The position numbers and the translations under genes are program-made. Under the pieces are notes generated by a model. The model was given only the letters and a program-made list of their open reading frames with translations, made no database searches and had not been told where the DNA came from. From a virus, in the IMG/VR virus record IMGVR_UViG_3300013426_000031: a stretch of 64,000 nucleotides of DNA; one strand, written 5' to 3'. Of this stretch, positions 27,536-30,332 are shown piece after piece; position 1 is the first letter of the stretch; every line of letters starts with the position of its first letter.

Positions 27536-28864
27536 TTAAGGCTAAGACAATTGCATTAAATAATTCGTTTCACTGTCTCCAATAATTTTGATACTATCTT
27601 CTTTTTTAATTAAAAATGGTATTTTTTTACTATTGTATTTTTCAGCTAATTTATTCTAATAATAATAATTAGCTAAAACTCTTGCTTTATGCATATCACA
27701 AGTAAAAGTTGTTCTTTTATTAATGGTTCCGAACACTTGATAATTATAGGCGGAACACCAAGCGCATCCTTCAGAAACTGGACATTCAATACATTCAGGA
27801 GGATTCTAAGATTTCCATGTTACATTTAAATTTTTTATTCTTTCTTTAGTTTTAGGAGTTTGTCCTATTCCTTCATAAATATTCCCTATAATGTAAGACT
27901 ATTGATCTTGTCCAATAGAACTTTCCATATATCTTAAGCATGGAAAAATATCACCTTTCCAATCAATGGCAATCATTTTTCCATCTCCGCCACACCAATT
28001 TTCATTTTGTAAATGTTTCTAACTATCAGTTAAATGTAAATCTAAAATTGAAATTCCTTTTTTAGTTTCTAAATTATTTTCTAAAATATAATTTGCTACC
28101 TTTTTTAATTCATTATATAAAATAGTAGCGTGCTCTATTGTCCATCCTTTTTCATATATACAGTTAGCATGAATATAATTATGATTATTATTTATTAAAT
28201 TAATTAAAGCATCGCTTGTATAATTAATATTATCAGGCGATAAAGTCATTTTACTAGATAAATTAGGATTATATTTTTTACCAAAATCCTATTCGGCTTG
28301 AATGGCTAAATCATAACTACCTTTGCCATTAGAAAAGACTCTACAATTATCATGTAACTATTTGTTTCCATCAATAGATATTGATAAACTTAAATGTTGA
28401 TTATGCTTTTTAATAAATTCTTGCACTTCTGGAGTAAAATACAATGTTCCATTGGAGGATAAAGAAACTCGAAATTTAGTAGCCCATGGATGATTTAAAA
28501 GTATTGCTTGTTCCATAAAATAATCAATAATTTTATCAATTAATTTAATTTCTAAAAAAGGTTCTCCGCCTATAAATTCTAAAATACATCCGGTAATAGT
28601 CTGACTTTGTATATAACTACTAAAAGTTTTATCATCATTTAAAATTTTATCAATAAACTATTTAGCAATTTCAAAAGGCATCACGTGATGCCCTTTATTT
28701 ATCTAATAGCAGTAAGAACAACATAAATTACAATCATCAGTAACCTAAAATGTAATAGTTTTAACTATATTATCCTAAATATTTTTATTAAAATGCTCAG
28801 GATAAGAGCTACAAAATTTTTCTAATTGATTATTAAATGCAAGATTATTATAATTCTTAATCAT
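27536..28864 (-). CDS. radical SAM/SPASM-domain enzyme #2, many in-frame TAG
   Basis: ATG 28862-28864. ...ITFQVTDDCNLCCSYCYQ..., FIGGEPFLEIKLIDKIIDYF, C-terminal SPASM Cys cluster (CIECPVSEGCAWCSAYNYQ...CDMH). Ends TAA 27536-27538. ORF 28019..28249 is an internal fragment. Confidence 0.7.
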
Positions 28865-29156
28865 AAATTTTAATTCTTACCTCATTTTTATAAAATAAAA
28901 TTTCCCATTCAACCTTTTTGAATTTTTTAGGTAAAATTGGTTCAATATATTCTTTATAAAACTCTTTTTTAGCTAAATCGTATTCTGTATAATATTCAAT
29001 ATATTCGGTATTATACTATTCAAATAATTTATTAGAAATATCTAAATTTTTTGATAAAACAAAATTTAATAAATCTTTTCTAGCTAGTACTTCATACATT
29101 AAACTTTCTAAATAAATGAATTGATCCTACTCAAATGGTATAACTTTTTCTATCAA
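28857..29156 (-). CDS. small hypothetical protein (about 100 aa, TTG start, 2 TAG)
   Basis: AGGAGA RBS then TTG. Stop overlaps the radical SAM ATG (ATGATTAAG). Confidence 0.25.
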
Positions 29157-29169
29157 AATTTATTCTCCT

Positions 29170-29741
29170 TTAAATGCTTGGAAAAATATAATCTAATTTC
29201 TCTTTATCTGCTACTTCTAAGTTTAATTCATCGATTTTAGTTATTATATTTTGGGCTAATTCTTGTTCTTCAAAAAATTTATTTTCATTAATAATTGAAG
29301 TTAATAGCATATTTAATACTACTAATCTTAATGGCTTAAAATAAAAATTATTAATATTATTAAAAATTTTCTGTCTAAAAGATGAGAATTTTTGATTAAT
29401 AAAATCATTAAAATGTTTCTCTTTTAAAATATAATATTGAAAAATAAAGGAAAAATCTTCAATATTAAATAATTCTTTAGAAAAATCAAATTTTGTTAAA
29501 TAATAGTTTAATTGTATAATAAAATTTTTGATATTTTCTAAAGAATTTATATCATATAATTTTATTAAATTTCCTAAAAAATTACTTAAAAAATAAATTT
29601 TATCTTGATCAGATGCTGTTTTTATTAAAGAATTTAAATTAGAATATTCTTGGTCAATCTATTCTTCTTCAGCATTATTTTTTACTAAAATCAATAAGTT
29701 ACTTATTGATTGAAAAATTTTTACATTGTCCATATTTATAT
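29170..29741 (-). CDS. hypothetical protein (about 190 aa, one TAG) between Cys-rich #2 and radical SAM #2
   Basis: ATG at about 29739-29741. Continuous frame with TAG as sense to TAA 29170-29172. Invisible in the standard-code ORF track. Confidence 0.4.
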
Positions 29742-29756
29742 TTCTCCTTTAAAAAA

Positions 29757-30332
29757 TTATTGACTTACAGAACTACAATTGCTTCCGCAATTACTACAGC
29801 TACTTCCACAGGAACTTGAACAATCAGAAGCATAACAAGAGCTAGTACATGCGCCACTACATCCATTATTTCCGCAAGAACTTGTGCAGTCATTCGAACA
29901 AGCGCTGCCGCATCCTGAGCATCCATCGCATGAATTAGTACACCCACTACAACCTTCTGAGCAGGAACCCGAACAACTGTAACATAATCCTGTACAATTA
30001 CTACTGCAATCTGTAGTTCTCTTATTGTGCTCGTTAGTATTTCCCCATAATGTAATTAATGCTTCCATTTTAGATAGGTCTTCTTCTTTGATCCTTTTAT
30101 TTTCCCCTTCAATATCGGGAACCTATGTAGAATTAATAGCATTCATGGGAATTGCATTTTTTTCATAATGTTCTTCCTTAATTCCATTGCCAGAAGCAGG
30201 AGTTATAGTAAAATCATACTAAGTTCCACCATAAGAGGCGACTGAGCCGCCCTTAGTATTATTTCTTCTATTACATTCTGTTTTTACTTTACTTTTTAAA
30301 TTTATAAAACGAGTAGGAGAAATTCTCGCCAT
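29757..30332 (-). CDS. Cys-rich CxGxC-repeat protein #2 (N-terminal ~90-aa non-Cys region, C-terminal Cys repeats), 2 TAG
   Basis: AAAAGGAGGA RBS then ATG 30330-30332. Same frame through two TAG into ORF 29757..30068 (CSSNCTGLCYSCSGSC...). Confidence 0.6.

Follow-up and report, generated by a model that had tools for sequence, protein, structure and literature searches.

Three characterised radical S-adenosylmethionine (SAM) enzymes, CteB, PapB and QhpD, install thioether cross-links at Cys residues of their substrates. CteB carries an N-terminal peptide-recognition domain that resembles the recognition element (RRE) of pathways for peptides that are made on ribosomes and modified after translation (RiPPs). 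PapB, the freyrasin enzyme, works iteratively along a repeated Cys-X3 substrate motif, and QhpD places several thioether links in a protein subunit, QhpC, that is not cleaved and stays functional. The winged-helix fold of PqqD and the RREs follows the order β3-α3, a three-stranded sheet and then three helices. Closer in sequence to the locus described here is the CXXX-repeat system (TIGR04115, TIGR04114/PF27846 and TIGR04116), which is known so far from computational family definitions alone and whose enzyme family, TIGR04115, is named "radical SAM peptide maturase, CXXX-repeat target family" in NCBIfam. We analysed positions 27536-30332, on the minus strand, of IMG/VR virus record IMGVR_UViG_3300013426_000031, a 64,000-nucleotide stretch of viral DNA that we call the window throughout. 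Our overall explanation, which we regard as probable while leaving considerable room for doubt, is that the window has three paralogous cassettes, this region among them, and that each matures a CXXX-repeat protein.

When TAG is translated, the region resolves into four co-oriented, closely packed genes on the minus strand. In order of transcription these are Cys2, for the putative substrate protein (29757-30332; 191 amino acids, two in-frame TAG codons), orf187 (29170-29733; 187 amino acids, one TAG), orf100, for the accessory protein (28857-29156; 99 amino acids, a TTG start and two TAGs), and rSAM2, for a radical SAM/SPASM maturase (27536-28864; 442 amino acids, eleven TAGs). Cys2 and orf187 are 23 nucleotides apart, orf187 and orf100 are 13 nucleotides apart, and the stop of orf100 overlaps the start of rSAM2 by 8 nucleotides; AGGAG-type ribosome-binding sites stand ahead of Cys2, orf187 and orf100. 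An initial annotation, made from the letters of the window, had proposed a radical SAM/SPASM and Cys-rich pair here with two TAG-containing open reading frames (ORFs) between them. Its coordinates and all four genes are borne out, the outer two by the TIGR04115 match, the SPASM Cys residues and the CXXX tail detailed below. The two inner ORFs likewise exist and need TAG to be read through, but their lengths had been put at 190 and 100 amino acids and are 187 and 99. The expectation that these genes would be invisible to standard-code gene calling was also sound, as translation of the stretch with table 11 yields only fragments of 46-76 amino acids. Public assemblies of close relatives already have gene calls of 189, 187, 80 and 442 amino acids at the cassette.

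The gene order of the cassette is kept in five relatives found in separate metagenomes (L002-L006), which have 84-88% nucleotide identity and of which three come from contigs of 142-182 kb. Compared with them, orf187 shows 0 gap characters and 0 in-frame TAA or TGA codons, and its differences fall 32/10/41 on the first, second and third codon positions; orf100 likewise has 0 gaps and no TAA or TGA stops, with differences distributed 11/4/20. The relative P0005 has ATG at the codon where orf100 has its TTG start. By these substitution patterns, orf187 and orf100 are real genes under protein-coding constraint. A megablast search with 20 kb of the window and a tblastn search with orf100 gave no match among GenBank phages.

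The source phage uses genetic code 15, with TAG read as Gln, because the window encodes a suppressor tRNA with anticodon CTA (24545-24622, minus strand; found by ARAGORN and Rfam) and because TAG codons exchange with CAA and CAG in the relatives, at most of the variable sites. In codon alignments with L002-L006 the TAGs of the cassette pair mostly with TAG, CAA or CAG; in the L003 comparison, 13 of the 14 codon pairs of rSAM2 that involve TAG are of this kind. The window has 33% GC and carries nearly all its long ORFs on the minus strand. Its ORFs of 100 amino acids or more add up to 59 kb when TAG is a stop and to 75 kb when it is translated. The tRNA-CTA is needed to translate all four genes of the cassette. 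We take the source to be a phage of roughly 180 kb recoded to TAG=Gln.

rSAM2 belongs to TIGR04115 (428.4 bits, E 2.8e-128, against a curated cutoff of 350); the alignment spans its residues 35-402 and positions 2-359 of the 359 in the profile, and its CXXX-repeat target neighbour, Cys2, lies in the same operon. It holds the CX3CX2C radical SAM motif (C45-X3-C49-X2-C52) and seven SPASM Cys residues (C291...G-X4-C309; C358-X2-C361-X5-C367-X2-C370; C389), with a Pfam SPASM score of 20.3 bits, slightly below the cutoff of 21.5. The next-best NCBIfam models all score far under their own cutoffs: PapB (E 2e-52; 178 bits against 340), the SCIFF maturase (E 1e-35; 123 against 425), CcpM (E 2e-31) and QhpD (E 7e-31; 107 against 453), and rSAM2 is a member of neither the PapB, the SCIFF maturase nor the QhpD family. 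The best solved homologue is the SCIFF maturase CteB (PDB 5WGG and 5WHY), whose radical SAM core and SPASM region can be aligned to rSAM2 (E 1.3e-22 with 5WGG) and which also acts on a Cys-rich substrate. Residues 20-397 of rSAM2 correspond to CteB 82-443, so that the RRE-like domain of CteB (residues 1 to about 81) has no counterpart, and the matches to the SCIFF, CcpM, QhpD, HxsB and Nif11 profiles begin only at profile positions 71-88. rSAM2 therefore lacks the recognition domain of about 80 residues found in CteB, and the corresponding N-terminal segment of the SCIFF, CcpM and QhpD maturase models.

From its nearest characterised relatives, CteB, PapB and QhpD, we infer by analogy that rSAM2 forms thioethers. 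Each of them offers a partial parallel. SCIFF peptides are Cys-rich, but they have about 45 amino acids and six Cys. PapB is the second-best NCBIfam match of rSAM2 and shares the repeated Cys-X3 substrate, but it forms its rings on CX3D; the acceptor residue here would have to differ, because the fourth residue after each Cys is usually Cys rather than Asp or Glu. QhpD, a radical SAM/SPASM relative, sets a precedent for stapling a whole protein, although its substrate and biological setting are different.

The putative substrate begins with a part of about 108 amino acids free of Cys and continues as a tail with 21 Cys, whose 20 Cys-to-Cys spacings include 13 of the CXXXC type. The tail starts at the junction CSSNCTGLC, spanned by the peptide TTDCSSNCTGLCYSC. 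The corresponding spacings number 20 of 26 in Cys3 and 21 of 26 in Cys1 (27 Cys), the Cys-rich proteins of the two other cassettes, and in these CXXX tails Cys is usually followed by Cys four residues on, with Ser, Thr or Gly predominating at X1-X3. The N-domain of Cys2 (residues 1 to about 105) is shared with Cys3 (E 4.5e-12) and with Cys-rich proteins of the phage contigs L001 (E 5e-26) and L007, and it was found in 64 protein clusters, many with a precomputed PF27846 (tSAM_targ_Cxxx_rpt) assignment. An alignment of 49 such N-domains has 8 invariant columns and the conserved junction C-x-x-S-C-T-G-L-C. A structural model of P0024, which is identical to Cys2, predicts helices at 6-22, 53-66 and 83-98 (pLDDT mostly 60-86) and a disordered Cys-rich tail (below 50); a fold search with it against PDB gave no match. 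Cys2 itself matched nothing in Pfam, NCBIfam (TIGR04114 included) or PHROG, with a threshold of E <= 0.1 in the search for target-family matches and a local Pfam copy that did not include PF27846. Cys3 comes nearer to the described families (TIGR04114 at 18.6 bits against a cutoff of 20, TIGR04117 at E 0.016, and phrog_6085). The layout of Cys1 is reversed, with N-terminal CXXX repeats followed by a C-terminal domain of about 150 amino acids. The targets here thus resemble those of the CXXX-repeat system in having Cys at every fourth residue and PF27846 among the Cys2 homologues, but they are proteins of 160-480 amino acids with a conserved helical N-domain of about 100 amino acids.

orf100 aligns over its full length with orf94 of the third cassette (BLASTP E 4e-18) and also with an 81-amino-acid TTG-start ORF directly upstream of rSAM1, the enzyme gene of the first, so that an accessory paralogue occurs at all three cassettes of the window. 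A profile of the three paralogues found 19 clusters in 5.8 billion proteins, none with a Pfam domain or a name given by its source, and a profile of 15 accessory sequences found 785 cluster representatives at E <= 1e-3, most of them of 90-100 amino acids. Loci for a wider survey were retrieved from GTDB genomes and IMG/VR with an rSAM profile, which found 430 rSAM relatives in IMG/VR viral contigs and had its best matches in Clostridia metagenome-assembled genomes (MAGs); a pattern scan of IMG/VR for the Cys-rich N-domain was far poorer, returning only three loci. Of 120 strong rSAM genes in this survey, 106 have an accessory gene directly upstream whose end lies only a few nucleotides from their start, the commonest overlaps being 8 nucleotides (34 cases) and 4 nucleotides (24 cases). 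At 90% non-redundancy the phage or prophage loci fall into 62 clusters. The accessory is directly upstream of the rSAM, or fused to it, in 51 of them, a Cys-rich neighbour is present in 54, and both are present in 46. The arrangement extends to standard-code phage contigs (L001 and L007), where an orf100 homologue lies immediately upstream of the rSAM. In L162 (4572-6248) the accessory domain (residues 13-104) stands N-terminal to the rSAM (120-552) within one protein, in L007 (1245-2903), where two rSAMs stand in tandem, it follows the first of them as a C-terminal fusion, and L035 (3355-4014) has a tandem double accessory. These neighbourhoods and fusions mark orf100 as a regular, conserved partner of the radical SAM enzyme.

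The accessory was modelled with AlphaFold on P0005, which is 90% identical to orf100, from the alignment of 15 sequences. The model is confident (pLDDT 92.5) and has a strand at 2-7, helices at 10-36 and 42-74, and a β-hairpin at 81-87/92-98, giving a predicted order β-α-α-β-β. In BFVD it had three full-length structural matches, all uncharacterised gut-phage proteins (TM 0.74-0.86). The only NCBIfam family matched by more than one accessory member is TIGR04116, "CXXX repeat peptide modification system protein", which TIGRFAMs defines as the system's third gene; 2 of 78 members match it (best E 3e-4). The accessory of L015 has the best score, 16.9 bits against a cutoff of 50, with residues 8-75 collinear with profile positions 2-69 of 90. 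We therefore treat the accessory family as a divergent counterpart of TIGR04116 that falls outside the family by its curated cutoff and is not homologous to RREs. In this respect the locus is again both like and unlike the CXXX-repeat system: a protein of about 90-100 amino acids is encoded beside the enzyme and members of its family match TIGR04116 weakly and collinearly, but the family as a whole lies far under the TIGR04116 cutoff. An extra gene for 187 amino acids, the setting in a phage late region and the presence of three cassettes in one genome further set this locus apart.

The other two sets are complete cassettes with the gene order accessory, rSAM, Cys-rich gene, all on the minus strand. 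Locus 1 (4980-7376) consists of the accessory paralogue (7131-7376; 81 amino acids, TTG start, two TAGs), rSAM1 (5817-7115; 432 amino acids, eight TAGs, 43% identity to rSAM2) and Cys1 (4980-5813; 277 amino acids). Its accessory is identical to P0017, a protein from a 184-kb contig, except for the extension from the TTG start. Locus 3 (51143-53400) consists of orf94 (53116-53400; 94 amino acids, no TAG), rSAM3 (51774-53135; 453 amino acids, three TAGs, 48% identity to rSAM2) and Cys3 (51143-51802; 219 amino acids, one TAG), which has the N-domain of Cys2 followed by a CXXX-repeat tail. Three sets of enzyme, partner and substrate in one phage suggest cognate specificity.

The remaining gene, orf187, has a narrower distribution. 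Only four close homologue clusters, at 80% identity or more, were found in 5.8 billion proteins. More distant homologues of 190-191 amino acids (with TAG translated as Gln) occur in the TAG-recoded loci L096, L013 and L040, where the rSAM shares 62-70% identity with rSAM2; these homologues align collinearly and over the full length, with phmmer E-values of 9e-13 to 2e-9. Because these homologues keep the same slot, orf187 is a conserved cassette member within a clade of TAG-recoded phages. Conserved partners and coding signatures, whose lack the initial annotation had named as grounds for giving up the two intervening ORFs, were thus found for both: paralogues and regular neighbours for orf100, clade homologues for orf187, and codon signatures in each. 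No paralogue of orf187 was found at loci 1 and 3, including the C-terminal domain of Cys1 and the ORF downstream of Cys3, and orf187 has no Pfam, NCBIfam or PHROG match. At most other loci the slot is empty or holds a different ORF of about 100-112 amino acids. Being absent from both paralogous cassettes and from most loci, orf187 is not a general component of the system. The recognition or chaperone role first suggested is plausible for orf100, as a conserved partner.

Other ORFs recur at the place of orf187, after the Cys-rich gene and ahead of the accessory. One of about 96-135 amino acids is present in L019-L022, L027, L029-L032 and L128, and in L020, L021, L029 and L030 it starts with MK(I/L)V..(D/N)GTE. 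The slot ORFs of L010, L015, L033 and L016 were considered as remote orf187 homologues and rejected, since BLASTP, hhalign, jackhmmer and a family profile gave nothing significant; hhalign probabilities stayed below 1%, and the best collinear BLASTP matches (E 0.02-0.13) were among the analogues themselves.

The surroundings of the cassette bear on when its products might be made. The initial annotation had placed it upstream of a tail-fibre block beginning at 32646, an orientation that the transcription direction reverses: the cassette lies 3' (downstream) of the fibre-like genes. The gene directly upstream of it in transcription runs from 32646 to 30385 on the minus strand and encodes a 753-amino-acid phage protein (17 TAGs; phrog_37900, of unknown function) that is conserved in the relatives. 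Beyond it is a 295-amino-acid fibre-like protein (33063-33950, minus strand) with the C-terminal motif LIWIDTT..GVLKY....W..VPVAFS. A regular-expression search found proteins ending in the LIWIDTT motif in the window and at about 30 loci, with very variable N-terminal parts, one of them with collagen repeats, and such proteins stand directly ahead of the cassette at many other loci and occur in at least 17 of the 62 non-redundant clusters. In other phages the cassette immediately follows a fibre-like gene, often with lysis genes behind it. Such lysis genes are downstream of it in L007, L010 and L011, and in the window some 3.4 kb separate locus 1 from the endolysin gene.

We propose that the accessory protein binds the conserved N-domain of the Cys-rich protein, or its CxxSCTGLC junction, and holds the substrate for the enzyme. 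Since rSAM2 lacks the N-terminal recognition domain of CteB, the accessory probably supplies substrate recognition, RRE-like in function, and would dock the substrate in trans in place of the missing domain; its gene position and its fusions to the enzyme are consistent with such a role. rSAM2, through its SAM cluster and two auxiliary clusters, would then install many intramolecular Cys thioether cross-links along the CXXX tail, probably helped by orf187 as a clade-specific helper or adaptor for Cys2. In the resulting product, a small helical domain would carry a stapled tail that is redox-resistant and withstands proteases. Most likely this would be a late protein, either virion-associated or released at lysis; late production is suggested by the need of all four genes for the suppressor tRNA and by the position of the cassette 3' of the fibre block.

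Several observations weigh against this explanation or parts of it. The literature searched contained no experimental paper on the CXXX-repeat system or on the biochemistry of any TIGR04115 member, and the proposed thioether chemistry is carried over from enzymes whose scores are far under the family's own model. Because the accessory has neither an RRE sequence nor an RRE topology, its role in recognition draws only on gene position, the fusions and the domain missing from the enzyme, and orf100 itself has no TIGR04116 match. The model of the Cys2 N-domain is only of moderate confidence and has no fold match in PDB. The weakest step is the role of orf187, a gene missing from two of the three cassettes of the window and from most related loci, and the ORFs of 172-185 amino acids that occupy its slot in L010, L015 and L033 are not significantly similar to it. 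A place for the Cys-rich protein in the virion is a prediction. Finally, the genes around locus 3 have few TAG codons, and the fibre genes are far away.

Alternatively, the Cys-rich proteins might be no substrates at all, but metallothionein-like proteins that bind metal or Fe-S clusters while the rSAM acts elsewhere. Their very high Cys content and predicted disordered tail would suit such a function. The adjacency of a Cys-rich gene to the rSAM in 54 of 62 clusters, the definition of TIGR04115 peptide maturases by their pairing with a CXXX target and the conserved junction motif all argue for a substrate instead, and make a metal-binding protein highly improbable. It is also conceivable that orf187 and orf100 are the PqqD/RRE-like recognition or export parts of a classical secreted RiPP pathway, as had first been suggested. 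Both lie between a precursor-like gene and the rSAM gene, rSAM2 has no RRE of its own, and 99 amino acids is near the size of a discrete RRE. PqqD is likewise a small separate protein beside a radical SAM/SPASM enzyme (PqqE) that has no recognition domain, and like the accessory of L162 it is sometimes fused to the N-terminus of its enzyme. However, orf100 and orf94 match no Pfam, NCBIfam or PHROG family, TIGR04116 giving nothing even at E <= 10; orf100 has no Pfam match to PqqD/RRE (PF05402) at E <= 0.1, the family profile has no significant sequence match in PDB, and the accessory model has a different order of secondary structure from PqqD/RRE and no structural match to it. Nor does export fare better: the maximum Kyte-Doolittle 19-residue means of orf187 and orf100 are 1.45 and 0.69, giving neither a transmembrane-grade segment, and neither matches a family, transporter and peptidase families included. 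A classical pathway of this kind is therefore very doubtful.

A more serious alternative concerns orf187 alone, which may be an inserted "moron" or a fast-evolving passenger with no part in maturation. A passenger would fit its absence from the two paralogous cassettes and from the majority of the 62 non-redundant loci, many of which run directly from the Cys gene to the accessory and the rSAM, as well as its lack of any family or domain match. Against this, its slot is kept across relatives with 62-70% identical rSAMs and orf187 homologues at phmmer E-values of about 1e-9 to 1e-12, the gene sits 23 and 13 nucleotides from its neighbours with its own ribosome-binding site, and unrelated ORFs of 172-185 amino acids fill the same position in L010, L015 and L033. 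On these grounds we weakly favour a clade-specific helper or adaptor for Cys2 and consider a passenger somewhat unlikely. It is possible, too, that the modified Cys-rich proteins are not virion-associated but are diffusible effectors, bacteriocin-like or host-modulating, freed at lysis. Relatives of rSAM2 make ranthipeptides and sactipeptides, some of them antimicrobial (according to NCBIfam family names), cassettes often adjoin lysis genes, and three different cassettes in one phage are reminiscent of an effector repertoire. The loci examined hold no recognisable leader-cleaving protease, immunity gene or exporter, however, the most regular upstream neighbour is a fibre-like gene, and an N-domain of about 100 amino acids with 8 invariant columns in 49 sequences would be an odd feature in a leader that is discarded. 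We judge effectors unlikely, and keep the maturation of a late, most likely virion-associated or lysis-released, CXXX-repeat protein as our preferred explanation.

Enzyme, small partner and Cys-rich protein come as a regular trio, in most cases beside fibre-like and lysis genes, and provide a defined set of three to four genes for reconstitution, and the accessory is a candidate for a new route of substrate recognition by RiPP-type enzymes. The cassettes also raise the possibility that phage particles or lysates hold heavily cross-linked proteins. It is tempting to speculate that gut phages staple a fibre-linked virion protein with a ladder of about 20 thioethers, using an rSAM guided by a new, non-RRE docking fold. 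We think it unlikely that all of this holds, but if it did, RiPP chemistry would act on a phage structural protein and could provide a redox-proof stand-in for disulfides in an anaerobic habitat, and the three sets in one phage would imply strict cognate specificity. In TAG-recoded phages, standard gene calling breaks such cassettes up, and RiPP genome-mining tools will miss them.

Phages and prophages whose hosts are Clostridia-type gut bacteria commonly carry the CXXX-repeat system. Isolate genomes and MAGs also hold rSAM relatives at loci that look prophage-like. Among the isolates are Desnuesiella massiliensis (mt10), with locus L015, and Eubacterium pyruvativorans (i6), with L022, and since the IMG/VR viral contigs L108 and L128 have matching gene layouts, both loci are prophages. 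A more distant group consists of MAGs of Margulisiibacteriota/Termititenax (L046-L056, L082), whose rSAMs have about 32% identity and lie beside Cys-rich ORFs of about 400-670 amino acids; the accessory gene was undetectable next to these rSAMs. As to the host of the window phage, a 342-amino-acid protein (19121-20149, minus strand) has a signal-peptide-like N-terminus and a counterpart with an SLH domain in relatives. This domain, together with the rSAM matches in Clostridia MAGs, hints at a Gram-positive, Clostridia-type host.

The window also contains non-coding elements. ARAGORN called ten tRNAs, which with additional Rfam matches make up a large tRNA set; tRNA-like Rfam matches of 32-39 bits that ARAGORN did not call lie at 44120-44174, 47428-47489 and 26622-26716, all on the minus strand. 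Between the suppressor tRNA-CTA and a tRNA-Tyr/tRNA-Gln pair there is a full-length ROOL RNA (25453-26040, minus strand), which matches Rfam RF03087 over model positions 1-574 of 574 with 318 bits. A weak match to YrlA, a Y RNA-like RNA (RF02553), at 26446-26562 (minus strand) scores 29.8 bits, below the gathering score of 69. The N-terminus of a 503-amino-acid ORF (16668-18179, minus strand) may resemble that of Ro60/TROVE-type proteins. Just past the stop of rSAM2, positions 27120-27536 are non-coding and contain a further tRNA-like Rfam match uncalled by ARAGORN (27336-27406), a perfect 15-bp hairpin (27454-27493) and three copies of a 45-nucleotide repeat (27140-27184, 27206-27250 and 27492-27536), each of which reads on the minus strand as a near-consensus promoter, TTGAAA-17-TATAAT.

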